Below are positions 13,748 through 45,165 of a stretch of 64,000 nt of DNA, in pieces. Positions within the stretch are counted from its first letter, which is position 1. Each line of letters opens with the position of its first letter. The position numbers were made by a program, and so were the translations under genes. The stretch comes from a virus. The DNA is taken from the IMG/VR virus record IMGVR_UViG_3300044991_001301. One strand, given 5' to 3'. The notes below the pieces were generated by a model. The model was given only the letters and a program-made list of their open reading frames with translations, made no database searches and was not told the DNA's origin.

Positions 13748-14845
13748 TCAGTTACCAGCTTCAACGATGTATTTGCCAAACTTTTTGTGGAACTCGTCAA
13801 AATTCTTCAACTGCGAGGGCTCAATGGGCAGCTTGTATGTTTTCAGCGCGATTTTGGCGCCCATAACAACCAATTCAGTCTCAAAGTTAGCCATGATGTA
13901 GCTGAAGAAATTATCAGCCATTTCGTGGAATTGCTTGTTATTGACCCGCTTGTTATCCAATGCATCCTTCAACTCATAACACATTGAAATTGTCAGAGAA
14001 TACATCGCCGAGATTTCCTTGACTGCGAGGTCCTTGACTTTCCCTGCAAGAATGTCGCTGGGTTCAGGCATACGACCCGAGACTTTGCGGTGAGCCATAA
14101 ACTTAACAGCAAGTCCCTCGCCAACTGCACCTGCTACGAGATTGAACAGGGTATCGGCATCCGTGTCGTCATCATTCAGCAGATCGCTCACAAAGCACCA
14201 GCTACGCGGGGTAGGGAAAGCGCGGCTGCTTGACTTAGAATCAAGATTGTAGATATCCTGTTTAGCGAACGACAAGTATCCAACCACATCCTTGTGAATA
14301 TTCTTATTCACAGCCCAAGTTTGCCATGATGCAAAGTCGGCTCGCATTTCCAAGTGTAGGAAACGATTAGCGAGGGGCATTGGCATGCGATAAGTAACAC
14401 CCTTGTCGCTATCACGATTGCCAGCCGCGATCAGCACCACATTATCGGGGAGCCTATAATTCCCGATACGACGATTCAAGACCAACTGATACGCGGCCGC
14501 TTGAACAGCAGGGGGAGCCGAATTCAATTCATCAAGGAAGAGAACAATGATTGGATATTTTGAAGCCAACTCATCATCGGGCAGATCGATCGGGGGAGCC
14601 CAATCCATCTTATTAAGATCACGATTGAAGAATGGGATGCCGCGAATGTCAGTCGGCTCCATTTGAGCCATACGCAGATCGATCATAAGACCACCCAGTT
14701 CCTGAGTTACTTCAGAAACAACATCACTCTTGCCGATGCCGGGAGGGCCCCAGAGAAAGATTGGGCGCTTGCTTTTAAACGCCTTGAGGATTGCTTTGCG
14801 CGCTTGGACGCTAGTGATAGTGAGAGTGTCAGAAATTTGAGACAT
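13748..14845 (-). CDS. MoxR-like AAA+ ATPase
   Basis: Walker A GPPGIGKS, Walker B LFLDELN, AAGNR, LANRF and PTPRSW. Adjacent to the VWA gene. Confidence 0.9.
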   Translation of the reverse strand: MSQISDTLTITSVQARKAILKAFKSKRPIFLWGPPGIGKSDVVSEVTQELGGLMIDLRMAQMEPTDIRGIPFFNRDLNKMDWAPPIDLPDDELASKYPIIVLFLDELNSAPPAVQAAAYQLVLNRRIGNYRLPDNVVLIAAGNRDSDKGVTYRMPMPLANRFLHLEMRADFASWQTWAVNKNIHKDVVGYLSFAKQDIYNLDSKSSSRAFPTPRSWCFVSDLLNDDDTDADTLFNLVAGAVGEGLAVKFMAHRKVSGRMPEPSDILAGKVKDLAVKEISAMYSLTISMCYELKDALDNKRVNNKQFHEMADNFFSYIMANFETELVVMGAKIALKTYKLPIEPSQLKNFDEFHKKFGKYIVEAGN

Positions 14846-14878
14846 TTGTTACTCCTAGTGAAAATTTACAATAAATGA

Positions 14879-14907
14879 ATTATAACTGATGTTGGATTTA
14901 TTGTCAA
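14879..14907 (-). promoter_or_regulatory. Consensus sigma70 (early) promoter for MoxR-VWA
   Basis: Minus strand TTGACA-N17-TATAAT, an exact consensus, 33 nt upstream of the MoxR start. Confidence 0.85.
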
Positions 14908-14911
14908 GTTT

Positions 14912-15172
14912 TTAATCCATCAACTTAGCAACCAATATCAGCTTTTGCAGGTGATCAATCGATTGATTGATGCTAGCAAGAGGACCTTCAAGTATGAAGG
15001 ATTGTCTGGACTGCCGGCAGATTACCTCTTTTTTGGAAATATCGGTGAGCATCCCTTCTATGTTTTTCAGCATTTTACGGAGATCAGGGTTATATCTAAT
15101 GCGAGATAGGTCGCGGCGCAACTCATCACACACTGTTCTCCCGTCTATCGCAGTCTTTACATTCATACCCAT
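14912..15172 (-). CDS. Hypothetical protein, probably early and leaderless (start likely at 15166)
   Basis: Helical 86-aa ORF. The second ATG (MNVK) begins at the 7th nt after a perfect -10 box. Confidence 0.6.
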   Translation of the reverse strand: MGMNVKTAIDGRTVCDELRRDLSRIRYNPDLRKMLKNIEGMLTDISKKEVICRQSRQSFILEGPLASINQSIDHLQKLILVAKLMD

Positions 15173-15201
15173 ATTATACTATATAATGGTATTTATGTCA
15201 A
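15173..15201 (-). promoter_or_regulatory. Consensus sigma70 promoter
   Basis: Minus strand TTGACA-N17-TATAAT, an exact consensus. An ATAAATA late motif overlaps the -35 box and spacer. Confidence 0.8.
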
Positions 15202-15220
15202 CCTTGTCGGGCCACCGTGG

Positions 15221-15243
15221 TAAAAGGGGCTTTGCCCCTTTTA
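15221..15243. terminator. Intrinsic (bidirectional) terminator after the porin
   Basis: TAAAAGGGGC-TTT-GCCCCTTTTA hairpin with A/T tracts on both sides. Confidence 0.8.
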
Positions 15244-15261
15244 GTGTGCCTATTCAGTTGT

Positions 15262-16140
15262 TTAGAACCGATGGGTGACACCTACTCCAAACTGAGTAAC
15301 ATCAGCTACTGTGCCAAAACGATTGACATTGCGATAAGCTACATTAATTTCAGTACGCTTGCTTAAAGCATAATCGGCGCCAGCAGAATATGCTTTAACA
15401 TTGCCATTTGTCCTACCATAACTAGCTTTCGCTGTAATGGCACCGAACGTGCGAGCTACCCCAACCAAGTCACCTTTACTCTTAACAACACCGGTGTTGT
15501 CACTATGAGTGTATGCTAATTGAGTTCCCATTACCTTTGTACTTAAGCCTATTACAGTGCTCTTTTCTTTACCGCTTTCAAAGCGTGCCAGTGCAGCATC
15601 AACATTAGCAACCGTTGCAGTCAATGCATAAGCCGAAGCATTAATGCCACCATCACGCGAACGCTCATATGCAATCCCTACATTTTTCATCGGGGTCAAT
15701 GTGATGAACGCAGCATTACCTAAACGTAGGTTGCGAAGATTATGAACATCTCCGGCTACAGAGCCATATAGCGTGCCAAATACATCATTAGATGTGATGG
15801 CCAAGAATTGGCTATGAACATTACGTCCAAGATCAATACTAACTAGCTTAGTTGTCAACCCTACGGTTGCCTGACGATCACCAACCTTAGTACCATTCCC
15901 ATCAATCGTGTTAGCACCTAGACTAGTTTCAATGACTGCCCTTGCGGTTGCGCCATTCCCTATTTTCTCACTTGCAGTCATAGCAAAATTACTAGTTGGC
16001 TCAGTAACTAAGCCGGTAACTCTGCGGGCACCTGTGGTAGAAGTGTCTACAATCTCGCTAACTTTACCCGACAGGGTTAGTTGGGCACTGGCCACGCCAG
16101 TTAACGCCATAAATAATGTTGCCATTACGATTTTTTTCAT
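15262..16140 (-). CDS. Gram-negative outer-membrane porin (Betaproteobacteria-like)
   Basis: Sec signal MKKIVMATLFMALTGVASA-Q, then RQATVGL, SIDLGR, GADYALSKRTE and a C-terminal beta-signal GVGVTHRF. Confidence 0.85.
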   Translation of the reverse strand: MKKIVMATLFMALTGVASAQLTLSGKVSEIVDTSTTGARRVTGLVTEPTSNFAMTASEKIGNGATARAVIETSLGANTIDGNGTKVGDRQATVGLTTKLVSIDLGRNVHSQFLAITSNDVFGTLYGSVAGDVHNLRNLRLGNAAFITLTPMKNVGIAYERSRDGGINASAYALTATVANVDAALARFESGKEKSTVIGLSTKVMGTQLAYTHSDNTGVVKSKGDLVGVARTFGAITAKASYGRTNGNVKAYSAGADYALSKRTEINVAYRNVNRFGTVADVTQFGVGVTHRF

Positions 16141-16263
16141 ATCTCATTCCTTTATTTAAAAATCCGAGACTCGGATTATACAAATATTTATGCTAGCGTA
16201 GGCAGACAAATAATTTATCTGTTTGTGTAAAGTATGATACTATTGGCTGTATTTACCCAAAGA

Positions 16264-16285
16264 AATAGGGACCGAAGTCCCTATT
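16264..16285 (-). terminator. Intrinsic terminator closing the tmRNA
   Basis: Minus strand AATAGGGAC-TTCG-GTCCCTATT followed by TCTTT (UUCG tetraloop). Confidence 0.8.
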
Positions 16286-16565
16286 GCTATTTTTGGTTAC
16301 AAGGCATAACTGCCTCGCTTTCAACCGTTTGAGGCTAAAAGGTATGTATTATCGTTTGCGGATAATGGTTTTATGCGATTTACGGTCGTCATCTACCGTG
16401 TAGATCCTTCAAATAATCCTTTCGCAATCGATACTGTTTCAGGCCCATTATAAAGTACACTGTATGTCGGATACTATTCCGCTCGTAACACTGAAGTGTC
16501 AATGTACTTTATGGTGGACCTGGCCGGCACTGCCCCGGCGTCTTGCAATTGTTTCTTATCTGGCG
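16286..16565 (-). ncRNA. ssrA: Circularly permuted (two-piece) tmRNA
   Basis: The acceptor piece ends GACGCCGG-GGCAGTG-CCGGC-CAGGTCC-A-CCA (CCA end at 16512). An intervening segment (16447-16511) is closed by the inverted repeat ATAAAGTACA/TGTACTTTAT. The coding piece starts GGGCCTG at 16446, giving a 7-bp acceptor stem with G3:U70. A pk1-like element precedes the resume codon GCA at 16359 and the tag ANDNTYLLASNG-stop (16359-16321). The upstream boundary is approximate. Confidence 0.9.
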
Positions 16566-16850
16566 TTAAACTACAATTCTGTTTTGTGGCATGCTCTTTT
16601 TAAGCCTTCCACTAATAAATCCTTTGGTAAAATATCTCTCTTGGTTTTCAATCAGTATATAATGTTATGTAATACCATTATTTACCCAGCATTTTGTAAC
16701 CACATGTCCTTTTTTGCCCTTAACCCAACCATTGGGCATAGCATCATGCATTGTACTACGTTTTACTTCTTTTGTCAATACGTTTGAAATCCAAATTATG
16801 CCGAACTGTGAATTTCGTTCACCTACCTGATGCTGAATCTTTGCAAAGGT
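16566..16850 (-). pseudogene. C-terminal remnant of a free-standing phage homing endonuclease
   Basis: Start-less frame TFAKIQHQVGERNSQFGIIWISN...PNGWVKGK...CWVNNGIT*HYILIENQERYFTKGFISGRL with an internal TAA at 16665-16667. The GxxNSQFG and WxNNG...GxxxGR modules are typical of phage homing endonuclease C-termini. Confidence 0.6.
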
Positions 16851-17561
16851 TTATTTACTATAATTTTTCACAGCACTGATTGCATGAGTAGTCGATGCTA
16901 ATTGATTTTTTGCTGCTTGATGTTTGGCAGGATCTAGATATGATGAGCCTGCTGTAGGATACCCCGCAGAACGAACATTCTTTAGTCTTTCGTCATGACT
17001 TGGATGAGTTTTACTACCTTGACTAAAAAATTTACCCGCTTCATGTATATCGCGCAGAGCCTCATTTACATTATACCCAGCAAGTATTGCTAGGCGTACA
17101 CCATACGTATCTGCTTTTAATTCTGCACCTTTAGGGTCTAGATGGTAGCTGCTAGTTCCATTAACAAAATGCCCTAATTCATGACCCAATGCAAATGCTA
17201 TAGCATCGTCAGATAAATCATAATATACAGTAACATCTAAATATATTAACTTTAGTTTAATATCAGCGGCTGCAACTTGATTTACCCAACCTACTTCTAA
17301 CTCAATATCTTTAGTTTTTTTATAAGTATTCGGATCGTTTCTGGCAATAGTTACTTGTAATTTTCCAAGAATTTGATTAGCCCGAAATTGTAACTTAGGT
17401 TTTTGTTTTTCATAAAATGTCATTTGATCTACTGTGCTTTCACCAGGATGAACATATTGTCCAGCGCGTGATTGACTGGTGGCGCCAAGAGCGGCGGCTG
17501 CCGCCCCTCCCACAAAACCGCGGCGAGTAATATCTTCATGAATTATTTCATTTATACGCAT
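16851..17561 (-). CDS. M48-family zinc metalloprotease with capsid-targeting-like leader and twin-arginine signal
   Basis: AFALGHELGH (HExxH), ELKADTYG and THPSHDERL. N-terminus MRINEIIHE-DITRRGFVGGAAAAALGA. Exact TATAAATA at 17566-17573. Confidence 0.85.
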   Translation of the reverse strand: MRINEIIHEDITRRGFVGGAAAAALGATSQSRAGQYVHPGESTVDQMTFYEKQKPKLQFRANQILGKLQVTIARNDPNTYKKTKDIELEVGWVNQVAAADIKLKLIYLDVTVYYDLSDDAIAFALGHELGHFVNGTSSYHLDPKGAELKADTYGVRLAILAGYNVNEALRDIHEAGKFFSQGSKTHPSHDERLKNVRSAGYPTAGSSYLDPAKHQAAKNQLASTTHAISAVKNYSK

Positions 17562-17596: not shown

Positions 17597-17664
17597 TGGT
17601 GCCCACAGTGTGGGAATCGAACCCCCGTCCAACATGCCTTCTATCCAAAGGAATTACAACAATC
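17597..17664 (-). pseudogene. Orphan tmRNA/tRNA-like 3' end (T-arm + ACCA)
   Basis: Minus strand ...GGCATGTTGGACGGGGGTTCGATTCCCACACTGTGGGCACCA has a canonical GGTTCGATTCC T-arm and an ACCA end, but no matching 5' half or anticodon arm is visible. Confidence 0.45.
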
Positions 17665-17667
17665 TTT

Positions 17668-20600
17668 TTATTTATTCCTAAAATACAATGCGTCGAATTT
17701 CGCTCTCAGCCACGGCCAATCATAGCTTAGCTTTAATTTCTCAAAATCACCATTAACTTCTTTGTAATACTCCACCGCGTGTTGAGCACCATCAATGCTA
17801 TATTGAGCAAAATCACCCATTCCAACTGTCAGCCAGAATTCAAGTCGTTCATTGCTGATATCAGAGGCGTCGTGGACTAACTTTAACGCTTCTCTAAACG
17901 CAGTTCTCCACGTGCTATATGCATCGGTATTGTATACTGCTGTGCCACTCGTAATTTTAACAACCTCGTGCTCGTCATCCATTGTAAAGTCAAGACCTGT
18001 GCCAGGATTAGCAAGTGTCAATTTTTTGTTATATGCAATCATAGCTTGGTGTCCATATACTAACCCATTCACGGGGTTTTTAGCATGAAATACATAATGC
18101 TTGGGTATTTGTAATCTGTCGGGTTGCCAATTCCAATCAAACTTTACCGCAACCTTTAACTTTGCGAAAACTGTAAACATCCAAGCCGTATTACTTGCTT
18201 CAGCAGCAGCGTGATATGCTGCTACTCGACCATTAACGCCGTCAACTCGGGTAATACGATTTGGCAACCCGTGCGTCACCTTAAGCAAATGCTCGTAGTT
18301 CTGTTCCGCACCCAATTCACCGTTACTTAAGAAAACAATGTCCATTGGGGAGGATTTGGTGAGTTTGCTATTAGTGATAATGTATGGATAATCGTATAAC
18401 TCTCTTTTAACATACTTGGCTGCTTCTTTAGGAACAATAATGCGAGTTCCACCCTCACTAGTAATCACGATGTTCTTTGTTTCGCTACTCCACAAACTCA
18501 TTGGTTCAGTGTCAATGACTGTAATGGCAGTGTTGTCATCAGTAGTGAATACTGCATAGGGAAAGTTAAACGGGGTGTTGATACTATCCACGTGAGTGTC
18601 ACTGGTAGTAATAATGATTGGAGCTGGCAACCGTTTGCTACGTTGACTTTGATTGTAATTAATCTTAACAAAATCTTCTAATACTGTCATATCATCACTC
18701 AACTCTCGTAATTTGTTAACATCAATTAAAAATGTATCTCCAAACTTTTGCTTGTCACTGGGGAATACGTGAAGTTGTTCTTTGGTAAAGGGATCGCATA
18801 TGTAAGTAAAGTCAAACCCTGTATAATCACAAATAGTGCTAACTACCCAAACATAATGTTCTGGTTTAACAGGCAAATTGGTCAACATAGTTCTAAATGT
18901 GTTGAGATAGCTGGTATCGTATTTTACAATCAAATTGCCGTAGCTGACATCAGCAAGTTCTTGATTGCCGTGGTCAATATACACTGTATCATACAATATG
19001 TTAGTAGCGGTTGCTCTGCGTTCTTTAACAAAATTCAAGTTAGACAAATGTTCTATGATTTTGATGTACTTGGTATCATTGGCAAATGTTTCCCGATTTA
19101 CCATAAAGGTTGTTCCCCAATGATTCCATTGAGTGCCGAACACGTGAACCATTTTCATTTGCCACGGGCTAGGGTAAAAGTCAAATTCAAAAGTGTTGTA
19201 ATCTAATTCACTATTAATCACCCAAAACAAAGTGGTTTCTGATTTGATAATGCACCTGTTGATAGTGTCAACCCAATTGTTCAAGTAGCGTGTTTTTTGT
19301 AGTTGTGGGTAGCGGAGTTTTAACTCATCGTACCGGTGTGCGCTTTCTGCATTTCTTTTATCTATAAAGAACATACTTAGATTGCTGTCTACCTTCACAC
19401 TAGCACCTTCAACATAATTATATGCTTGGTGCCCTAATATATACATTGGGCCGTTGACATAGTAAGTTTGTGTATTGATACTGTTTTCATTGCCAAACAC
19501 ATTGATGTGTCTGAAGTTTTCTTCTGTGGGTTTCCAACTAAAATCAAATTTAGAATAATTCAAGTCAGGATTGATAGCCCAGAACACCTCATCAGAATGT
19601 TCGGCAATCAACTCTTCCAATGTTGTTTTAATTTTATAACGGTTGACTACTGCTTTCTTTGTTTCGTTAGTTCTAGCCATCAACACAACTTCATTGGCAT
19701 CAGGGACAGAATAGCGTGGCCCATTGTCAGCCCATTGATATATTTGTGGCGGACTGTGTGGGTTAGGTCTCCATGTAAAGTCAAATGTTTCTAAGTCATC
19801 ATTGTTATTGATAGCCCAAAACTGAACCTGTGCTTTAGGGGTAGCAACAGGACTATCCATATACTTAAACTCTGTGGCACCCTCACAATGATACTCAATG
19901 GATGGCTCGATAGTCATATCATTCCACTTGTTACCAAACACATAGATATAGGCGGGGCTATTGGGGTCTGGACGCCAACTATAATCAAACCATTCAATTG
20001 GGATCAATCGTTTCCAATTGTGATCTGTAGCAGTTGACTTTACTACACCAACGATATCTGTTATGTATTTTCTATCACTCGCTCCGGGTGTGTGATACTC
20101 TACAGTTGGTTCGCGTACGCCGTCGTGCCATTGATTACCAAACACATAGATATAGGGACTAGAGTGGGGATTGGGTCTCCAACTATAATCAAAGTTGTCT
20201 ACTGGTATCAGCGTTTTCCAGTGTTTGTGCGTATTAGCAACGGTAGCGACAACATCTGTGACAAAGCTTTTTTCTCTAGCACCTTCTACAATGTACTCCA
20301 CCGTAGGTTCTGTCATAGCATCGTGCCATTGATTACCAAACACATAGATATAAGCGGGGCTATTGGGGTCTGGTCGCCAACTAAAGTCAAAAGACTCAAC
20401 AGGAATTAATATCTTCCAATTTTGCGGTACAGGTAGTGTTTTAGCCACCCTGTCTAGCATATATTTTCGTTCGGTGGCAGAAGGGCAATGGTATTCAATC
20501 GTGGGTTCTTTCTCCGCACCATTAGACTGATTGCCCCATACATAGATGTATGCGGGTTCACGTGGGTCTGGTCTCCAACTAAAGTCAAATGATGACTTGT

Positions 20601-23600
20601 CAACTGGTATTAATAGTTGGTACCTATCCCATTGGGGGACTACGTCAGCCTCACCCACGTATTTGCGCTCAGTCGCCCCATCACAATGAAATTCAAGTGT
20701 CGATTGTAATTCGCCGGCGACATATTTATTGCCCCATACATAGATGTATGCTGGTTCACGTGGGTCTGGTCTCCAACTAAAGTCAAAGTTTTCAACTGCT
20801 TGTAAAATCTTCCAACTTGCGTGTATGGGTGTCACGCTAACATCGTTACCCATGTATTTAAACTCTGTGGCTCCATCACAGTAATATTCCACTGTGGGTT
20901 TCAATTCAGCACTGATATGTTTGTTACCCCATACATAGATATATGCGGGTTCTCTGGGATCCGGTCTCCAACTAAAGTCAAAGTTTTCAACTGCTTGTAC
21001 AATCTTCCATTTGTCAAATTGGGGAACTACTTCCACAGTGTCGTCCATGTATTTGCGCTCAACAGCTCCTTCGCAATGATATTCAAGTGTAGGTATTAGC
21101 TCCCCGGATACCCACTTGTTTCCCCAGACATAGATATATGCTGGTTCACGTGGGTCGGGTCGCCAAGTAAGGTCAAACTTAGTTTTGTCTATAGGCTGAA
21201 TTTCATTCCAACGATTAGTTTCTGGCAAGACGGCAACCTCATCACCCATATATTTTCGTTCTGTGGCATCGTCGCAATGATATTCAAGGGTAGGCTTCAA
21301 GTCGGCGGCGATCCACTTGTTACCCCAGACATAGATATATGAGGGTTCACGAGGATCAGGTCTCCAACTAAAGTCAAAGTTTTCAACTGCTTGTACAATC
21401 TTCCATTTGTCAAATTGTGGCAAGACTTCAACATTGTTGTCCATGTACTTGCGCTCAACAGCTCCTTCGCAATGATATTCCACAGTGGGTTTCAACTCAG
21501 CACTAATGTGTTTATTACCCCATACATAGATATATGCGGGTTCTCTGGGATCAGGACGCCATGTCAAGTCAAACTTAGTTTTATCAACTGGCTGAATTTC
21601 ATTCCAACGATTAGTTTCTGGCAAGACAGCAACCTCATCACCCATATATTTTCGTTCGGTTGCCCCTTCACAGTGATATTCCACTGTGGGTTTCAACTCA
21701 GCACTAATGTGTTTATTACCCCATACATAGATATATGCGGGTTCTCTGGGATCAGGACGCCATGTCAAGTCAAACTTAGTTTTGTCTACTGATTGTATTT
21801 CTTCCCATTTGGCTTGCTCAGGTAGCACCTCAACATCATCTCCCATATATTTAAGTTCAGTCGCACCATCGCAATGATATTCTATTGTTGCTTTTAACTC
21901 AGCACTGATATGTTTATTTCCCCAGACATAAATGTATAGTGGTTCACGTGGGTCGGGTCGCCAAGTAAGGTCAAACTTAGTTTTGTCTATAGGCTGTATT
22001 TCTTTCCATCGATTAAGTTCAGGTAGCACCTCAACGTCATCTCCCATATATTTGCGTTCGGTAGCTCCCTCACAGTGATATTCTATAGTGGGTTTCAACT
22101 CAGCACTGATATGTTTGTTACCCCAGACATAGATATATGCGGGTTCTCTGGGATCAGGTCGCCAAGTAAGGTCAAACTTAGTTTTGTCTATGGCCTGGAC
22201 TTCTCTCCAGCGATTATATTCTGGCAATACCATAACCCCTTCGCCCATATATTTTCGCGCAATGGCTCCTTCACAGTGATATTCAAGAGTTGGCTTCAAG
22301 TCGCCGGCTATCCACTTGTTGCCCCATACATAGATATAAGCTGGTTCGCGTGGATCTGGTCGCCAAGTAAGGTCAAACTTAGTCTTGTCTATGGGTTGAA
22401 TTTCTTCCCATCTATCTTGATCAGGCAATACCACAACATCATTACCCATATATTTAAGTTCAGTCGCCCCTTCACAGTGATATTCTATAGTGGGTTTCAA
22501 CTCAGCACTGATGTGCTTGTTGCCCCATACATAGATATATGCGGGTTCTCTGGGATCAGGACGCCATGTCAAGTCAAACTTAGTTTTGTCTATAGATTGT
22601 ATTTCTTTCCAGTGATTGAGTTCAGGTAGCACCTCAACATCATTACCCATATATTTAAGTTCAGTCGCACCATCGCAATGATATTCTATTGTTGCTTTTA
22701 ACTCAGCACTAATGTGTTTATTACCCCATACATAGATATATGCGGGTTCTCTGGGATCAGGACGCCATGTCAAATCAAAGGTATGTCTATCGATAGATTG
22801 TATTTCTTTCCAGTGATTGAGTTCAGGTAGCACCTCAACATCATTACCCATATATTTAAGTTCAGTCGCCCCTTCACAGTGATATTCTATTGTTGCTTTT
22901 AACTCAGCACTGATATGTTTGTTACCCCAGACATAAATGTATAGTGGTTCACGTGGGTCGGGTCGCCATGTCAAATCAAAGGTATGTCTATCGATAGATT
23001 GAACCTCATTCCAGCGATTGAGTTCAGGTAGCACCTCAACATCATTACCCATATATTTAAGTTCAGTCGCCCCTTCACAGTGATATTCTATCGTTGACTT
23101 TAACTCAGCACTGATATGTTTGTTGCCCCACACATAGATATAGGGAGGTTCATGTAAGTTGGGATCAGGTCTCCAACTAAAATCAAATTTACTTTTATCA
23201 ACTGACTGTACTTCTGTCCATCTATCCCATTCTGGTTCTAACGCAACAATGTCCATGTATTTGTATTCTGTTGCTCCCGGAACTGTATATTCTAATGTTG
23301 GTTTAACTTCAGCCGGATCATATTTGTTTCCCCATACATAGATATATGGTGGTTCACGTGGGTCGGGTCGCCAAGTAAGGTCAAACTTAGTCTTGTCTAC
23401 CGGTTGAACCTCATTCCAGCGATTAAGTTCAGGTAGCACATCAACATTGCCCATATATTTTCGTTCGGTAGCTCCCTCACAGTGATATTCAAGGGTCGGC
23501 TTCAAGTCGCCGGCTATCCACTTGTTGCCCCATACATAGATATATGCTGGTTCACGTGGGTCGGGTCGCCAACTAAAATCAAATGCGTTTTTATTCACCA

Positions 23601-24351
23601 CCTCGATCCCTACCCATTTATCCCATTGGGGCAGTACTTCAACTAACTCAGGCATATGCTTGATTTCAGTGGCATTGGGAGTGTGATACTCTAGTGTAGA
23701 TTGTAGCGTGCCATCAATAAACTTGTTACCCCATACATATATGTAGGGCGGGTCGAGGGGGCTAGGTCTCCAAGTCATATCAAACTTGTCTTTGTCTACT
23801 GTGTGTTCCGTCTCTACCCAATTAGCTGTGTTTGACAGTAATTCCACCGTATCAGCCATATACTTGATAGCTGTAGCACCAGGGGTGTGATATTCTACAC
23901 AGGCTTTTAGGTGCACCGGGAAGAACTTACAACCCCAGGTATAGATATATGGAGGATCGGATGGATCTGGGTGCCAACTAAAATCAAATTTAGTCTCGTC
24001 AACTAAATCTAACAACACCCAACAATCATTCTTTTGATTTTTCCGTTTTATTGGATCAACGTCATTTCGATAGATAATAATTTCGCTAGGTTCAGATGGG
24101 CATAACCAAGTGCCGCTGTCTTTTTGGTGGAGACTGGGCCACACATTATTATGTTCTTCTGCCCAAACATCTTCATCGGGTAAGAATTCAAAATCAAAAT
24201 CCCAATCAAAGTTACGATAATCACAATGTTCGTTGATTATCCAAAAATGCGCAGTGGTACATTGACCTCTAGCGTCATCTATTGACGCAGCAAATTTTTC
24301 TCTTGGGTGAACATTGGGTTTTTTGTTACAGTAAAATACATCGAGGAGCAT
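17668..24351 (-). CDS. Giant tandem-repeat protein with degenerate glycosyltransferase-like domains
   Basis: 2227 aa with about 22 copies of FD(L/F)(T/S)WRPDPREPAYIYVWGNK...EYHCEGATE.KYM. The C-terminal domain (DIVFLSNGE...RVDGVNG..AAYHAAA...WRTAFREALKL) aligns by eye with 45170..46120. Confidence 0.75.
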   Translation of the reverse strand: MLLDVFYCNKKPNVHPREKFAASIDDARGQCTTAHFWIINEHCDYRNFDWDFDFEFLPDEDVWAEEHNNVWPSLHQKDSGTWLCPSEPSEIIIYRNDVDPIKRKNQKNDCWVLLDLVDETKFDFSWHPDPSDPPYIYTWGCKFFPVHLKACVEYHTPGATAIKYMADTVELLSNTANWVETEHTVDKDKFDMTWRPSPLDPPYIYVWGNKFIDGTLQSTLEYHTPNATEIKHMPELVEVLPQWDKWVGIEVVNKNAFDFSWRPDPREPAYIYVWGNKWIAGDLKPTLEYHCEGATERKYMGNVDVLPELNRWNEVQPVDKTKFDLTWRPDPREPPYIYVWGNKYDPAEVKPTLEYTVPGATEYKYMDIVALEPEWDRWTEVQSVDKSKFDFSWRPDPNLHEPPYIYVWGNKHISAELKSTIEYHCEGATELKYMGNDVEVLPELNRWNEVQSIDRHTFDLTWRPDPREPLYIYVWGNKHISAELKATIEYHCEGATELKYMGNDVEVLPELNHWKEIQSIDRHTFDLTWRPDPREPAYIYVWGNKHISAELKATIEYHCDGATELKYMGNDVEVLPELNHWKEIQSIDKTKFDLTWRPDPREPAYIYVWGNKHISAELKPTIEYHCEGATELKYMGNDVVVLPDQDRWEEIQPIDKTKFDLTWRPDPREPAYIYVWGNKWIAGDLKPTLEYHCEGAIARKYMGEGVMVLPEYNRWREVQAIDKTKFDLTWRPDPREPAYIYVWGNKHISAELKPTIEYHCEGATERKYMGDDVEVLPELNRWKEIQPIDKTKFDLTWRPDPREPLYIYVWGNKHISAELKATIEYHCDGATELKYMGDDVEVLPEQAKWEEIQSVDKTKFDLTWRPDPREPAYIYVWGNKHISAELKPTVEYHCEGATERKYMGDEVAVLPETNRWNEIQPVDKTKFDLTWRPDPREPAYIYVWGNKHISAELKPTVEYHCEGAVERKYMDNNVEVLPQFDKWKIVQAVENFDFSWRPDPREPSYIYVWGNKWIAADLKPTLEYHCDDATERKYMGDEVAVLPETNRWNEIQPIDKTKFDLTWRPDPREPAYIYVWGNKWVSGELIPTLEYHCEGAVERKYMDDTVEVVPQFDKWKIVQAVENFDFSWRPDPREPAYIYVWGNKHISAELKPTVEYYCDGATEFKYMGNDVSVTPIHASWKILQAVENFDFSWRPDPREPAYIYVWGNKYVAGELQSTLEFHCDGATERKYVGEADVVPQWDRYQLLIPVDKSSFDFSWRPDPREPAYIYVWGNQSNGAEKEPTIEYHCPSATERKYMLDRVAKTLPVPQNWKILIPVESFDFSWRPDPNSPAYIYVFGNQWHDAMTEPTVEYIVEGAREKSFVTDVVATVANTHKHWKTLIPVDNFDYSWRPNPHSSPYIYVFGNQWHDGVREPTVEYHTPGASDRKYITDIVGVVKSTATDHNWKRLIPIEWFDYSWRPDPNSPAYIYVFGNKWNDMTIEPSIEYHCEGATEFKYMDSPVATPKAQVQFWAINNNDDLETFDFTWRPNPHSPPQIYQWADNGPRYSVPDANEVVLMARTNETKKAVVNRYKIKTTLEELIAEHSDEVFWAINPDLNYSKFDFSWKPTEENFRHINVFGNENSINTQTYYVNGPMYILGHQAYNYVEGASVKVDSNLSMFFIDKRNAESAHRYDELKLRYPQLQKTRYLNNWVDTINRCIIKSETTLFWVINSELDYNTFEFDFYPSPWQMKMVHVFGTQWNHWGTTFMVNRETFANDTKYIKIIEHLSNLNFVKERRATATNILYDTVYIDHGNQELADVSYGNLIVKYDTSYLNTFRTMLTNLPVKPEHYVWVVSTICDYTGFDFTYICDPFTKEQLHVFPSDKQKFGDTFLIDVNKLRELSDDMTVLEDFVKINYNQSQRSKRLPAPIIITTSDTHVDSINTPFNFPYAVFTTDDNTAITVIDTEPMSLWSSETKNIVITSEGGTRIIVPKEAAKYVKRELYDYPYIITNSKLTKSSPMDIVFLSNGELGAEQNYEHLLKVTHGLPNRITRVDGVNGRVAAYHAAAEASNTAWMFTVFAKLKVAVKFDWNWQPDRLQIPKHYVFHAKNPVNGLVYGHQAMIAYNKKLTLANPGTGLDFTMDDEHEVVKITSGTAVYNTDAYSTWRTAFREALKLVHDASDISNERLEFWLTVGMGDFAQYSIDGAQHAVEYYKEVNGDFEKLKLSYDWPWLRAKFDALYFRNK
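19730..23990 (-). repeat. Coding tandem repeat, about 201-bp (67-aa) unit, about 22 copies
   Basis: ATTACCCATATATTTAAGTTCAGTCGC recurs at about 22441, 22642, 22843 and 23044 (201-bp period). Central copies are near-identical in DNA and outer copies are diverged. Confidence 0.95.
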
Positions 24352-39028: not shown

Positions 39029-39991
39029 TTAAATAAATTTAGGGATAATAATGTCAGTACCACAGTGACAATGTTCTTTGTTACAAGTAATTTGTTTTGG
39101 GCCGGCTCTAGAAATATCTTTTAAAATATGACCCACATTGCCACCCATACCGCAACTTGCTAAACTCATCTCACCGACAGGATTAATAAAAATAGCATCA
39201 CCTACATTGCATTTCCATCCGCTAAAGAAGTTATTTCCTGCAACAATGACTTCATTACTATTACACACTTCAGTATGCATATCATCATACTTGGTGTAGC
39301 TAACCGTGTAATTCGTTCTTTTGTCTGGTTTAGGTTTAGACTGGTGGTGTTCCGACGTACATTCGTTAATGAACTTGGTTTTGTCTGGGTCAGTGTAATG
39401 CCAGGGGCCGGCATTTACACTCATCTCATCAAATAGTGGAGTCCATTCTAAAAAGTAATTTGGCATTACTGTTTTTAAATGCTTACCAAACTCTACTACT
39501 TCCCAAAATCTTTCTTCGTGCAACAACATCTTAGTGGCCAAGTAGTTTACCTTGTCACACAAGAATATGCTGTTTTCTTCATAGCGTTGTTTATCTGCAA
39601 ACTCCACGTGGAAACTAGCAACAACATCATCAAATAAATGATAATTCTTTTCCCACCACTTTAGAGGACGACTTAGGTTGGTATTGACTGCTAATGTAGC
39701 ATGTGGTAATTCGGTGTACAACCATTCACAAATTGGTATAAAGTTGCGCCAGGCTGTGGGTTCACCTCCACTAAAGAAAAACTTAAAGTTTTTGTATCCC
39801 ACATCCTTGTATCGGTTAATGATAGTTTCTAGATTTTTTATGTACAAATCTGTGTTGCCATCATTAATATCAGTGCCTCCCCAATTGCCAGGGTTACAGT
39901 AACTACACCTGAAGTTACAATAATTTGAAACTTGCCAGGTAACCGCTAGATACGGCTCAGGTGCTTCTATTGCGATTAGCTTTCGGCCCAT
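39029..39991 (-). CDS. Radical SAM enzyme with C-terminal Cys-rich domain
   Basis: CNFRCSYC, SGGEPT, NTNLSR and WKCNVG...ASC...CNKEHCHCGTD. Confidence 0.88.
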   Translation of the reverse strand: MGRKLIAIEAPEPYLAVTWQVSNYCNFRCSYCNPGNWGGTDINDGNTDLYIKNLETIINRYKDVGYKNFKFFFSGGEPTAWRNFIPICEWLYTELPHATLAVNTNLSRPLKWWEKNYHLFDDVVASFHVEFADKQRYEENSIFLCDKVNYLATKMLLHEERFWEVVEFGKHLKTVMPNYFLEWTPLFDEMSVNAGPWHYTDPDKTKFINECTSEHHQSKPKPDKRTNYTVSYTKYDDMHTEVCNSNEVIVAGNNFFSGWKCNVGDAIFINPVGEMSLASCGMGGNVGHILKDISRAGPKQITCNKEHCHCGTDIIIPKFI

Positions 39992-41280
39992 GCATATACC
40001 TCTTTAAGTTCTGGAACAACATCTACCAACTTCTCATTTCTAAATTCATCTAGCTCATCATTGAACTTTTTAAACTCTAGAATGCCACCTTTATTTTCAT
40101 ATGATATCGCATTTTTTCCTGCGTACTCAAAATGCCCACTTTTTAGTGCTTGCTCAATAACTTTAAACCCATCTGATATCTCTCGATGGTAAGAATATTT
40201 TTTAATATATTCTTGATATAATGCTATCAAGCGTGTTTTGACAAAATCTGGCAGTATCATCACATTGGCATACCATGGATTAGTTGCTAGGTTAAATCTA
40301 GGGCTTGACTTGTCGTCTATCAGTCCTTCTGCGAGTAAGTTATCAAAAAATTTAGGGAAACTAAACACGTTCCAACTACTAATAGTAGGTGTGATTTGAA
40401 ACTGAGCGTGTGGAACTTGTTCTTTAAGCGTTTTAATATTCTTTACTACACGCTGCCAATCAGTACCCTTGCGAATCACTTCTGCTACTTGCCCTTCAGC
40501 ATCTAAGCTAGCCCATATTTTAAGTTGCGGGAACTTACTCCAGTAACCAATCAAGTCTTTATCTTTGTATTTCAACGAACTAAAATTAGTTGTATAGGTG
40601 AGTTCAACCTGATCGGTTAACCCATTCTCAATCCAATAGTCTAAGCATTCGTAATGTTCAGGGGTTATAATGATTTCGCCACCTGCAAAATAAACTTCTA
40701 ACACATCTTTTAAATATGGTTTCAACTTATTCATAAACCCCATTTCTGCTGTTGAGTTTATTACAATCTTTCGAGTTTTAAAATATTCTTCATAAACATC
40801 AACGCCACGTTCATCAACCATCTCTTGTGCCCACAGACTACTGCATCCTGGACCACAGCTACGGCACTTCATATTACACATATTACTAAAACGCAGGTCC
40901 ATGTATTTCATCTGAAATTCTGATAGAGTCCCGTCAGTGGCTGTATTTTTTGAAATCATATCTACATATTCAAGCCCTCTGCGTTTATTGTGACTTTCAC
41001 GCATTGTCCAAGTGCCCATGGTCTCTAAATCATAGCACCTCTTACACGCTTCAACGGGTTCATCATTAAGCATTGATGTACGCATTTTCTTGTAAGCTTC
41101 ACTATTCATCATTTGGATGATAGATTCGTCGTTCTTAATATCCGCGACTGGTAAATTACTATCAGCTACACAACAAGGCATTACCCTACCATCTGGCCAA
41201 GAGTGAAAATGCACCCAAGGCAAAACACAAAAGTGTTTGCCCTTTCTAACTAAGTTTTCTACTACGATTGGGTCTTGCAT
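39976..41280 (-). CDS. Radical SAM enzyme with N-terminal twitch/SPASM-like domain
   Basis: FCVLPW...PCC...CKRC, then SNMCNMKCRSC, FAGGE, YTTN and ASLD. Confidence 0.88.
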   Translation of the reverse strand: MQDPIVVENLVRKGKHFCVLPWVHFHSWPDGRVMPCCVADSNLPVADIKNDESIIQMMNSEAYKKMRTSMLNDEPVEACKRCYDLETMGTWTMRESHNKRRGLEYVDMISKNTATDGTLSEFQMKYMDLRFSNMCNMKCRSCGPGCSSLWAQEMVDERGVDVYEEYFKTRKIVINSTAEMGFMNKLKPYLKDVLEVYFAGGEIIITPEHYECLDYWIENGLTDQVELTYTTNFSSLKYKDKDLIGYWSKFPQLKIWASLDAEGQVAEVIRKGTDWQRVVKNIKTLKEQVPHAQFQITPTISSWNVFSFPKFFDNLLAEGLIDDKSSPRFNLATNPWYANVMILPDFVKTRLIALYQEYIKKYSYHREISDGFKVIEQALKSGHFEYAGKNAISYENKGGILEFKKFNDELDEFRNEKLVDVVPELKEVYAWAES

Positions 41281-41282
41281 TA

Positions 41283-42518
41283 TTACTCCGTTGCATCTTG
41301 TAACTTATTTAACTCGGGGAAGGTTTTCCAAAAACTTTCACCGCGTATTCTATCACCTGAACCTGTATGCATCATAAAGGTTTCTTTATTCGCAGCCCAA
41401 GTGTCGTCATCCTTTGCAAAGTTCACGGCGTCAGTTACTAAACGAGACAACGATGTGTGATCCCCTTCATTACTAGCTGCCCAAGCTAGCGCATTATTTG
41501 CTGCTGCAATTTTTAATTCTTTAGGTAAACTCTTACCGCTGTAATAACTAGGATGGACTGCTAGGTACAAGCTATGATACCAATCTTCTGCGCGGATAAT
41601 TCCTTTACTCTTTAAGTAAGTATAAAATTCTCCTATAGTTGAATAATTGAATATTGAAAATACTGTGTTCATTTGAAAAGACACATAGTCTAGCTCACGG
41701 AACTTTAATAGGTTGCTTTCAACTAACCCCCAATCAGTACCATGTCTCAACCATTCTGCACGTTCGCCATAATGATCTACACTGCAACTTAATTCAATTC
41801 GTTTAAAGTGTTTCCACATATCAAGCAGGTCGTAGTCTTTAAACTTGATGTTACTAGCATTGGTATTATATCGCAAGGTGATGTCAGTGCGGCCCTTGCG
41901 TATCATCTCATCTAGCATTATGTAATGCTCTTCCGTTAGGGTTGGCTCTCCCCCGGCAAAGTATGCCAAATCAATATGTTCAATTTGGTCTAATACTTCC
42001 CGCAACAAGTTACCCTTCTCATCGGCATGGATGACAATGGGATGTTTTGGGTCGTGATTGGCCCGCATTTCTGCTCCCCATTGACTAGAAAACTCTGAGC
42101 CGCACGTACGGCATTTGAAGTTGCAAATGTTGCTGAATCTAATATCAAAGTAATGCATTTTGAAATCAGGTACTGTCCCATCGGCTAATGTAGTGGGCAC
42201 AGTTGAATCAAAATGCTTACTAAAATGCTCTTTACTATAGTTTCTAAAACTATGCGGGCCGGCCTCTTCGTGCTTATAGCAAAAGTTACATATCTTGTTT
42301 GGCTTGTCGTTCAGCATATCCAACCGTAACTGTTTCATCTGTTCATTGTTAAATGCATCTTTAAGGCTAGTTTGTTTAGTATTACCAAACGGCACCGTAT
42401 AGTCATTGCTACAACAAGGATAGATGTCCCCTTTAGGAGTAACATTTAAGTGAATCCAAGGAAACATACAGAAATTTTTACTATCATTTAATAAATATTC
42501 TTTATTCAGCGGAGTCAT
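41283..42518 (-). CDS. Radical SAM enzyme with N-terminal twitch/SPASM-like domain
   Basis: FCMFPW...PCC...CNFC, SNICNFKCRTC, FAGGEP and YNTN. Confidence 0.88.
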   Translation of the reverse strand: MTPLNKEYLLNDSKNFCMFPWIHLNVTPKGDIYPCCSNDYTVPFGNTKQTSLKDAFNNEQMKQLRLDMLNDKPNKICNFCYKHEEAGPHSFRNYSKEHFSKHFDSTVPTTLADGTVPDFKMHYFDIRFSNICNFKCRTCGSEFSSQWGAEMRANHDPKHPIVIHADEKGNLLREVLDQIEHIDLAYFAGGEPTLTEEHYIMLDEMIRKGRTDITLRYNTNASNIKFKDYDLLDMWKHFKRIELSCSVDHYGERAEWLRHGTDWGLVESNLLKFRELDYVSFQMNTVFSIFNYSTIGEFYTYLKSKGIIRAEDWYHSLYLAVHPSYYSGKSLPKELKIAAANNALAWAASNEGDHTSLSRLVTDAVNFAKDDDTWAANKETFMMHTGSGDRIRGESFWKTFPELNKLQDATE

Positions 42519-43774
42519 ACAGTATCATCCATTAAGTCAGCAAGTTCGGGAAATGTTTTAACAAAACTCTCTCCACGAATATTATCACGCAGTATTGTGT
42601 TGGTTCTAAATTCTTCCTTATATTTTTCCCACGTATTTTCACTGGGTGCCATAGTCCAATCGATTATGCTGTTAACTGCGGTAAGCGACGGAGTATTAGC
42701 AGAGAATCCGCGTTCCCGCATTAGGTCTAATAGTGATAATAGTTTTAATCTGCCCTCATCTTTGTGATGCTGTGGTAAAACATTTGAAGTAAGGTATTCA
42801 GGACTAGACATATTATATATTGAAAAGTGAGCAGTGACCGGGTACAAGTCTTTATCAAATAGATATTGATAAAACTCTAGAAATGTCTTGTAATTATATA
42901 AACTTAGCACAGTATTCATTTGCAACCTGATGAATGGCGATTTTTTAGCCATTACGAAATTATATTCTATGTCGGCCCAATTGGTGCCATGGCGTATATA
43001 TTCCGCACGTTCGCCGTAATGATCTACGCTAGCATAAACTTGAATATGATGCTTGAACTTCTTCCAAAGACCCATCAAATCTTTATCTTTGAATTTTAGA
43101 TTGCTAAAATTCGTGTTATAGCGCAATGCTATGTCTGTGCGACCTTGCCTTATCATTTCTTCTAACATTATGTAATGTTCCTCTGTGATAAGCGGCTCAC
43201 CACCGGCAAAATAAGCGTCTTCCATATGGGGAATCTGATCTAAGACCTCTTGTAAAAATTCCTTTTTATTATTCTTTAAAATAATGCGGCGGCTGATATT
43301 GTTTTTTAGATTCTCTTGTTCCCATTGACTACTAAAATCGGGTCCGCAAGTCCTACATTTAAAATTACAAATATTACTGAATCTGATATCAAAGTATCTC
43401 ATCTTAAATTCAGTCAGGGACCCATCTTCCCGGGTAGGAGTAACAGCAGTATCAAAATAGTTACCGTATTGTTTGTTAGAGCTAGTTCGAAAACTTCCCA
43501 TATCCATGCTGTCATGCTTGTGACAGGTCGCGCATATTGGATTTTTAACATCACGCAACATATCAACACGCAGTTTCTTCATCTCAGTAGCATTGACAAT
43601 TTCCATCATGCTATCTTTGTTTGAATTGGCAATGACTTTATGATAACCAAACTCATCGATTGGTGTTTTTCCTATGCAACACGGCAGAACATCGCCAGTT
43701 GGACTGGTGTTGAAATGTACCCATGGCAGCATACAGAATGATTTGCTTTCTGTTAATAAATATTCTTTGTTCAT
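42515..43774 (-). CDS. Radical SAM enzyme with N-terminal twitch/SPASM-like domain
   Basis: FCMLPW...PCC...CATC, SNICNFKCRTC, FAGGEP and YNTN. Confidence 0.88.
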   Translation of the reverse strand: MNKEYLLTESKSFCMLPWVHFNTSPTGDVLPCCIGKTPIDEFGYHKVIANSNKDSMMEIVNATEMKKLRVDMLRDVKNPICATCHKHDSMDMGSFRTSSNKQYGNYFDTAVTPTREDGSLTEFKMRYFDIRFSNICNFKCRTCGPDFSSQWEQENLKNNISRRIILKNNKKEFLQEVLDQIPHMEDAYFAGGEPLITEEHYIMLEEMIRQGRTDIALRYNTNFSNLKFKDKDLMGLWKKFKHHIQVYASVDHYGERAEYIRHGTNWADIEYNFVMAKKSPFIRLQMNTVLSLYNYKTFLEFYQYLFDKDLYPVTAHFSIYNMSSPEYLTSNVLPQHHKDEGRLKLLSLLDLMRERGFSANTPSLTAVNSIIDWTMAPSENTWEKYKEEFRTNTILRDNIRGESFVKTFPELADLMDDTV

Positions 43775-45165
43775 AGTGGATTTAATCGGTTATCTGTCTG
43801 ACACATTCTATAGAAGTTTATATATTCAGGGAATATAGATACCATATCTGTGTCTCGCCGCTCATCCAATTCATTAAACCAATTGTAAAAATCGCGGCGT
43901 CCTTCTAGTAGTTTATCATCTGAATACACAGTTTCTGCCATGTAATCAACTACTCGCTTGAACTTTTCATATTCAACGGTAGTGAATTTATTACTAGCAG
44001 TATCATCAACATTCTCCAACATAAACTGTAGAGAATCATGCATATAGGGCATAAATTCTTCTTTGGGAAGAATGTTCATATCATACTGCAGTGGATCCCG
44101 TAAGTATGGAGTATCAAATCTAACACGATGACTCTTTATGTCGTCGTACCATCCATATTGATTACGCCATTCCAGCATCTTCACAAGCAGTTGCTTGAAG
44201 GTAGTTACACTGAAGATGTTGAAGGTAATCATAAATGTGATCGGACTATCTGTGCGTTGTAAGTATGTGTGAAAATTCTTTTCCCACAATTCCAAATCCA
44301 ATCCAGTACGAATATATTCGGCGCGCGGGCCCCATGTGTCTAAGCTGGTGAATAGTTTAAATGAGCGAATCTTTCCGTCATCACACAGTTGCTTAACACT
44401 ATCACTTAACTTTTCAACTAAACTGGTTTTAGTCCCTAGATTACTGTTAATATTCAACTCCAACCACGGCATAGGGTCAGCGGCAATCTTATCTAACAAC
44501 TGCCATGTGCTGCGGTGCATGGTTGGCTCACCGCCAGTAACTCGCATGATATTCAATGTCTTTCGTAATTCAGGCCACCATTCCCAGAATGCATCAACGT
44601 ATGGATTTTCTTCTTCACGTTGGTATAGTTTCATCCAATCAATGTCGCAACGATGATTCTTTACTGTAGTGACTGGGCCATTCTCTTTGATTTCATTATA
44701 GAATCGTGTGCTGTACTTTGGATGACAATATCCACACTTGAAATTACATTCATTACCAAAGTTAATTTCTAAGTATTCTGGATTTATGTTTTGATCCCAC
44801 GGACCCTTAACCGTCTGCTCATACCGTTCTTCAGTAAAAATACTAGCGTTACGAATATGACGGTCACTTATGTAATCTGGGCCCATTGCTTCAATGTTCC
44901 AGCAGTATTGACACCCCTTAGGTTTCTCACCAGCAAGCATTTCTTTACGTTCTAACTTCTTATGCATGGTGTTATGCAACGCAGATGGGTTGTCTTTCAA
45001 TTCACTTAGTGGAATCTTATGTGGCTGCGGGTGATAACAACTATGTGTCTCCCCTGTTTGTAAATACATAGTCACATGATGCCATTTAGCAAGACAGAAG
45101 GTAGGCCCTACTTCATTCTCGATTCGTATTTTAATATCTTTGATTCTTTTTTGTTCTGATGACAT
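43771..45165 (-). CDS. Radical SAM enzyme with N-terminal Cys/His-rich domain
   Basis: FCLAKW...HSCYHP...CQYCW, NECNFKCGYC, TGGEPT and NSNLG. Confidence 0.88.
   Translation of the reverse strand: MSSEQKRIKDIKIRIENEVGPTFCLAKWHHVTMYLQTGETHSCYHPQPHKIPLSELKDNPSALHNTMHKKLERKEMLAGEKPKGCQYCWNIEAMGPDYISDRHIRNASIFTEERYEQTVKGPWDQNINPEYLEINFGNECNFKCGYCHPKYSTRFYNEIKENGPVTTVKNHRCDIDWMKLYQREEENPYVDAFWEWWPELRKTLNIMRVTGGEPTMHRSTWQLLDKIAADPMPWLELNINSNLGTKTSLVEKLSDSVKQLCDDGKIRSFKLFTSLDTWGPRAEYIRTGLDLELWEKNFHTYLQRTDSPITFMITFNIFSVTTFKQLLVKMLEWRNQYGWYDDIKSHRVRFDTPYLRDPLQYDMNILPKEEFMPYMHDSLQFMLENVDDTASNKFTTVEYEKFKRVVDYMAETVYSDDKLLEGRRDFYNWFNELDERRDTDMVSIFPEYINFYRMCQTDNRLNPL

Follow-up and report, generated by a model that had tools for sequence, protein, structure and literature searches.

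A conserved family of two-piece tmRNA tags in large phages that carry residues beyond the Leu-Ala core

Background

To our knowledge, tmRNA tags almost always end in Ala-Ala, an ending that ties ribosome rescue to the destruction of the rescued protein. A departure from this pattern is known from Mycoplasma and Mesoplasma, a bacterial lineage that reportedly lacks ClpXP and carries long ssrA tags, and for which dependence on Lon is said to have been shown experimentally, the re-targeting of Mycoplasma ssrA tags to Lon being attributed to Gur and Sauer in 2008. The tag described here likewise departs from LAA at its end, but its carrier is a phage and the tag is short, and in the bacterial lineage it is the protease partner that has changed.

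Recognition by the ClpX of E. coli depends chiefly on the terminal Ala-Ala-COO-, and KM rises when one of the two alanines or the carboxylate is altered (PMC7652416). The optimum obtained from a screen of random C-termini is [L/F/Y/W]-[L/A/R]-L-A-A (PMC10862746). The determinants for SspB are taken from Flynn et al. 2001, as cited in PMC7652416. Relative to the E. coli tag AANDENYALAA, which is read by SspB and ClpXP, the tag of our locus keeps A1, A2, N3, D4 and Y7 together with the Leu-Ala core, but is without the free Ala-Ala-COO- and has two or three residues extra after the core.

Among phages, two-piece tmRNAs are represented by 53 ARAGORN calls in the 402 tmRNA-bearing phage genomes of Buchholz et al. 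2022, and aquatic phages with such a gene include OM43 phage Melnitz and pelagimyophages (PMC9004378). Here, we present a two-piece tmRNA gene from IMG/VR virus record IMGVR_UViG_3300044991_001301, of which a stretch of 64,000 nucleotides was analysed (hereafter, the window). As in Melnitz and the pelagimyophages, a circularly permuted ssrA resides in a large, lytic-type aquatic phage in which no phage smpB is seen, and a pore protein gene lies nearby both in Melnitz (a curli pore) and in the window (a porin). In contrast to these phages, the window has no glutamine riboswitch or other Rfam element upstream of the gene, and the tags of its family end in S-N-G or A-N-A instead of Ala-Ala. The best-scoring model is that of the betaproteobacterial two-piece tmRNA (RF01850; Sharkady and Williams 2004), which the gene matches in the message part, the 3' loop element and the terminator layout, whereas its tRNA-like domain is of alphaproteobacterial type (GGCAGUG, AUCGA) and the RF01850 consensus tag ends in Ala-Ala.

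While two-piece tmRNAs of phages are thus already known, the family of tags with additional terminal residues, referred to here as capped tags, is the new part. No report of this family was found in full-text searches of the literature or in the supplements of two tmRNA papers, and a blastn search with the window gene and the gene of a relative against 50,697 deposited phage genomes returned no similar gene, the sole match being one of 73 nt in the acceptor part to Stenotrophomonas phages.

Methods

Relatives of the tag were searched for in IMG/VR and a metagenome collection as tags starting with AND[DN]T[YF]LLA, with the end left free. Bacteria were scanned using one genome per species (185,579 species) with a pattern that required the GCAAACGA start and CGAGG after the stop.

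Results

The gene is encoded on the minus strand, a point left unspecified in the preliminary description, and is matched above threshold by two Rfam models, RF01850 beta_tmRNA at 16616-16261 (-) (93.3 bits, E 6e-27, threshold 84, model positions 1-331) and RF04321 tmRNA_permuted at 16575-16327 (-) (91.5 bits, E 2.5e-16, threshold 47, model positions 1-213). It is ordered as an acceptor piece with encoded CCA, a spacer and a coding piece (Table 1), and the acceptor stem has 7 bp with the alanine identity pair G3:U70 and discriminator A. By analogy with known two-piece tmRNAs, the spacer should be cut out when tRNA-processing enzymes trim the precursor. The minimum-energy fold of the gene has z = -6.3 against 100 shuffles and recovers the T arm, the acceptor stem, the spacer hairpin and the terminator.

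These results bear out the permuted tmRNA that had been proposed in the preliminary description, through the two Rfam models as well as the order of the pieces, and every feature that had been named is present, including G3:U70, ACCA, the GGCAGUG loop, the 65-nt hairpin spacer, the terminator and the tag ANDNTYLLASNG. The extent given there, 16286-16565, marks the right locus but cuts off about 10-50 nt of the 5' end as well as the terminator. Of the checks named there, the Rfam models responded; ARAGORN, run on the window, did not call the tmRNA gene, and its silence as evidence against a tmRNA was overruled by the models and by direct reading.

Table 1. Coordinates of the tmRNA gene parts, of neighbouring features in the window and of the clp genes in a family member
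Feature	Position	Strand	Description	Basis
Acceptor piece	16512..16616	-	paired 5' strand (partner in the coding piece), T arm, acceptor 3' strand, ACCA	Rfam and direct reading
T stem	16539-16535 with 16527-16523	-	5 bp	direct reading
T loop	16534-16528	-	GGCAGUG, 7 nt, alpha-type	direct reading
Acceptor 3' strand	16522-16516	-	CAGGUCC	direct reading
Encoded ACCA end	16515-16512	-		direct reading
Spacer	16447..16511	-	65 nt, closed by a 9-bp hairpin	direct reading and fold
Coding piece	16261..16446	-	GGGCCUG, AUCGA D-like region, hairpin, tag frame, helix 5, conserved 3' element	
Acceptor 5' strand	16446-16440	-	GGGCCUG, start of the coding piece, gives G3:U70	direct reading
Tag reading frame	16321..16359	-	resume codon GCA (16359) to TGA stop (16323-16321), encodes ANDNTYLLASNG	
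Helix 5	16318..16341	-	tag nucleotides 19-25 with nucleotides 36-42, stop codon in the 3' strand	
Intrinsic terminator	16259..16285	-	9-bp stem, UUCG loop, U tract	Rfam, reading and fold
Candidate sigma-70-like promoter	16750..16778	-	TTGACA, 17-nt spacer, TACAAT	consensus match, 11/12
Porin gene	15262..16140	-	Gram-negative porin, Porin_4 (E 1.6e-19), directly downstream of the tmRNA	
M48-like HExxH metallopeptidase ORF	16851..17561	-	236 aa, twin-arginine-type signal, weak Peptidase_M48 match	
Orphan acceptor fragment	17597..17675	-	5' portion of an older acceptor piece, 95% identity with its counterpart in contig L001, degenerate T-arm/ACCA-like end	
clpX/clpP locus of G004	L117:1423-2676 and G004:C1:67544-68089	-	same jumbo-phage fragment has a capped-tag tmRNA	

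Both the T loop and the AUCGA D-like region conform to the alpha_tmRNA consensus (RF01849: GGCgGUA, AGGAUCGAC), and the earlier remark that the T loop is of the type known from alphaproteobacterial two-piece tmRNAs was therefore right. Judged by the consensus matches, the window gene is a chimera in which a tRNA-like domain of alpha type is joined to a message part of beta type. In the 39 distinct tRNA-like domains that were tabulated, acceptor and T stems are fully paired through many compensatory changes, and G3:U70 is kept in all of them (39/39) while such changes occur elsewhere in the acceptor stem; in the nearest relative, U6:A is swapped to C6:G. About 135 nt separate the candidate promoter from the start of the tmRNA, downstream of it, that Rfam assigns. 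A 154-nt stretch with the best promoter-like site (window 16674-16846) is missing from the otherwise 97-99% identical contig L088, and the candidate may therefore not be the promoter of the tmRNA.

Including the charged alanine, the tag that would be added is AANDNTYLLASNG. Its TGA is an ordinary stop codon in this phage, ending 9 of the 37 long ORFs in the window, and sister tags stop with TAA then TAG, by which a lengthening of the tag through readthrough was ruled out. Helix 5, which pairs part of the tag frame with the region of the stop codon, is paired in 84/84 cells across 12 distinct family sequences, and one of its pairs occurs as A-U, C-G and U-A. In its own right, this covariation speaks for a functional message domain, and part of the conservation of the tag stems from the RNA helix and not from the peptide. 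An alternative helix, GCCUC/GAGGC, was not kept in relatives when judged by eye, without a formal count, and helix 5 was retained.

The identical tag ANDNTYLLASNG was found in four independent contigs, namely the window, L088, L001 and L004, of which L001 has a tRNA-like domain that differs from that of the window despite the same tag, and L004 begins inside the gene. Sister tags, ANDDT[YF]LLAANA or ...LLASNA, are present in about 35 further contigs. True tmRNAs in the scan with the free end comprised 33 contigs with A-N-A, two with S-N-A and four with S-N-G, and none of them, across IMG/VR and the metagenomes, has a stop directly after LLAA. Two other matches of that scan (L096 and L109) were due to chance, as were six loci without a tmRNA from a first DNA pattern scan. 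Altogether, 10 distinct tag coding sequences were recovered from about 39 contigs, all ending in A/S-N-A/G. Codons vary synonymously at Asp3, Tyr6, Leu7, Leu8 and Ala9, and the only replacements are D/N, Y/F, A/S and A/G, with Asn11 invariant and position 12 being A or G. Conservation within the gene is highest in the message part, and the 30 nt ahead of the resume codon vary freely from one of these family genes to another. From these comparisons, ANDNTYLLASNG is best described as a tip variant of a conserved family, (A)ANDDT[YF]LLAANA, in large phages.

In line with the earlier claim of a missing degron, the tag does not end in Ala-Ala with a free carboxylate, the ending being S-N-G in the window and A-N-A or S-N-A in the sisters. 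The accompanying claim that the SspB-binding part is intact also stands as far as the residues themselves go, since A-A-N-D-N-T-Y fits AANDxxY with all five matching positions kept. A comparison of tag ends among relatives had been suggested, with the thought that relatives ending in LAA and a single recent mutation or assembly error would speak against the claim. Syntenic relatives do end in LAA, but the tag belongs to a family that is conserved in about 39 contigs, and it is therefore not a single recent mutation or assembly error. In the common family tag, YLLAA or FLLAA, which is the optimal ClpX motif of E. coli although the ClpX of the host may differ, is followed by N-A; in the window variant, YLLAS is followed by N-G.

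Regarding the syntenic relatives, homologues of the porin, 49-67% identical, were found in 16 further viral contigs, and a permuted tmRNA lies upstream of the porin in nine of these (9/16; one is cut off by the contig end), so that the order of tmRNA and then porin is conserved in related phages. The tags of the nine porin-syntenic tmRNAs end in ALAA, SLAA or KLAA. As the syntenic relatives carry LAA tags, the capped tag is the derived state, with the canonical tag ancestral in this group of phages.

The bacterial scan returned four matches, of which three were chance matches in protein-coding sequence and one was true. The true match resides on a contig of 12.6 kb that had been binned with a UBP17 metagenome-assembled genome; this contig has phage-like genes downstream of the tmRNA (homing endonuclease, virion structural protein) and, in addition, a one-piece tmRNA that uses the same acceptor arm and encodes a canonical ...YALAA tag. 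Across the 185,579 species, as seen through this restrictive pattern, the tag family is apparently phage-only. The pattern could miss a host with a similar tag, and the absence from bacteria is therefore suggestive, not proven.

Within the gene, parts appear to have been exchanged as modules. Capped tags were seen with at least five T-loop types, canonical as well as alpha-type, and canonical tags were likewise seen with both T-loop classes. Near-identity between the window and L001 extends as far as the 3' strand of the T stem (16527), beyond which the two sequences diverge, and the orphan acceptor fragment of L001 type lies directly after the stop of the 2227-aa ORF. Based on this divergence and this fragment, the segment 16528-17611 looks like a module that was recombined in, with the break inside the T arm. 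It contains the alpha-type T loop, the new 5' part of the acceptor piece, the leader and the M48-like peptidase ORF. The layout of L088 is the same as that of the window, and the window leader is 78% identical to the leader of three other family members. A link of the M48-like peptidase to the tag family was ruled out, the peptidase being confined to the window and L088.

A single long array of minus-strand genes makes up the window, with genes for thymidylate synthase, DHFR, a MoxR-type ATPase with a VWA/metallopeptidase partner, a carbamoyltransferase, many sugar-modifying enzymes and radical SAM enzymes. The gene had been taken to be phage-borne, which is upheld by PHROG and Pfam matches among its neighbours and by relatives that are IMG/VR contigs. 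The nearest record is an IMG/VR contig with 97.5% identity over 14700-16527, and larger relatives are fragments of 138-178 kb with an estimated completeness of 39-51% (178 kb at 51%), which would put the phages at about 350 kb. Since smpB was not found in the window ORFs or in the related 138-178 kb fragments, the tmRNA must use the SmpB of the host. Further features of the window include five tandem radical SAM and/or SPASM paralogues at 39029-45165 (-), of which three have SPASM (39976-43774), set amid a block of sugar-modifying, methyltransferase and carbamoyltransferase genes (about 2900-36200). Two ORFs are giant, one of 2227 aa at 17668-24351 (-) with a single small YdaS-like match, and one of more than 4169 aa at 51425-64000 (-) that is open at the window edge.

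Among the members of the tag family, G004 has genes for a full ClpX (TIGR00382, 497 bits) and a ClpP (262 bits). In an alignment to the ClpX of E. coli, the G004 protein is full-length, has the zinc-binding N-domain and keeps Y153, V154, T199, V202, R228 and H230, and with all six ssrA-contact residues kept it looks like a canonical reader of Ala-Ala. A re-specified phage ClpX as the partner of the tag was rejected, as these contact residues are canonical. SspB and S41/Tsp-type peptidases were searched for in four related fragments and not found.

Discussion

Our preferred reading, to which we give a probability of roughly one half, is that the window encodes a functional phage two-piece tmRNA that would rescue ribosomes while giving the released chains a poor mark for ClpXP or none; the steps of processing, charging and tagging, and the escape from ClpXP, are inferred. 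The whole gene would be transcribed into a single precursor, from which host tRNA-end processing enzymes would trim the spacer hairpin away, and the acceptor and coding pieces would remain base-paired. Host AlaRS would charge this RNA with alanine by way of G3:U70 and the discriminator A, and, together with host SmpB, the charged RNA would enter ribosomes that have stalled at broken mRNAs in the course of infection. Translation would resume at GCA and append the tag, whose extra residues (N-A, or S-N-G in the window) would take away the free Ala-Ala-COO- while the SspB part AANDxxY would stay. A capped degron is the simplest reading of the tag, by which ribosomes would be rescued and the products would be poor ClpXP substrates, although the tag might still be acted on by ClpAP, Lon, FtsH or Tsp. 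The purposes suggested in the preliminary description, to counter host defences that cleave mRNA or tRNA or to titrate SspB/SmpB, are conjectural. The ClpX and ClpP that G004 itself encodes complicate a simple story of avoiding ClpXP.

What simple loss of the degron does not explain is the strict conservation of the two extra residues, which suggests that they are recognised. The tag could accordingly still be a degradation signal, either because a host or phage ClpX tolerates N-A or N-G, because ClpAP, Lon, FtsH or Tsp read LLA-x-N-x, or because a carboxypeptidase unmasks YLLAA, which would make it a conditional degron. An invariant Asn and a position 12 that is only A or G favour such recognition over mere loss, and the optimal ClpX motif [YF]LLAA underneath the cap, the occurrence of clpX and clpP in a family member, and the precedent of Mycoplasma, where ssrA tags were reportedly re-targeted to Lon, are consistent with it. 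We nevertheless regard this alternative as less likely: the contacts of the phage ClpX are of E. coli type and fit Ala-Ala-COO-, for which substituting either terminal alanine raises KM, the four related fragments yielded no S41/Tsp-type peptidase or SspB, and residue 10 in the window is Ser, so that even an unmasked tag would end in ...LLAS.

It has also to be considered that the RNA acts mainly as a decoy that soaks up host SmpB, or whose tag soaks up SspB, damping trans-translation or ClpXP delivery in the host. The tag with SspB-binding residues kept and the ClpX-binding end altered would suit this role, as would the related fragments in which smpB was not found, and a phage tmRNA with a tRNA-like domain only has been reported to inhibit tmRNA (PMC4131195). 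A decoy, however, needs no intact resume codon, in-frame stop, covariation in helix 5 or synonymous bias in codon change, and the message part would hardly have to be the most conserved part of the gene, which makes this role improbable.

At least as improbable is a tag that copies the host tmRNA's own, in an ordinary host-derived passenger gene whose ending is read by host proteases. The scan of representatives of 185,579 species gave a single match, on a phage-like contig together with a one-piece tmRNA carrying a canonical ...YALAA tag, the syntenic phages have LAA tags, and the beta and alpha consensus tags of Rfam both end in Ala-Ala; these observations outweigh the general resemblance of phage tmRNAs to those of host lineages (PMC9004378) and the restriction of the scan to one pattern. 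Finally, a decaying copy or assembly artefact, with the lost stop codon as damage, might be suspected from a bit score below that of relatives (93 vs 131 bits), the silence of ARAGORN and the past rearrangement marked by the orphan acceptor fragment nearby, but is largely refuted by the intact helices, the alpha-type T loop and matching D-region that recur together in many relatives, and the conserved family with the same tag in independent metagenome contigs.

Returning to a tmRNA that rescues ribosomes with little or no marking for ClpXP, we tentatively put forward a broader reading, which we hold with less than even confidence. Jumbo phages may maintain a dedicated lineage of tmRNAs with a 'capped degron' ([YF]LLAA followed by N-A, here S-N-G), which would uncouple rescue from ClpXP or would make proteolysis conditional on a reader or trimming enzyme, with modules exchanged by recombination in the T arm and with at least one phage having canonical and capped messages on a shared acceptor arm. 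Conserved and apparently phage-restricted capped tags represent a natural experiment on the separation of rescue from proteolysis and on what a virus gains from it. Further, the tag could serve as a natural ssrA-like sequence that would be expected to bind SspB while engaging ClpX in an altered manner.

Module swapping, together with a composite gene that has two messages, also bears on how permuted tmRNA genes arise. This composite gene was observed at L114:1501-2110 (contig of L070, DITF01000195.1), on a phage-like contig. There, a single T arm and acceptor end belong both to a complete one-piece tmRNA (RF00023, 136.8 bits, tag end YALAA) and to a permuted tmRNA (RF04321, 108 bits), and the gene continues with a spacer, a second 5' half and a second message coding for a capped tag, ...LLAANA. 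One acceptor arm would thus serve two alternative messages, and the composite could be a snapshot of the origin of a permuted gene.
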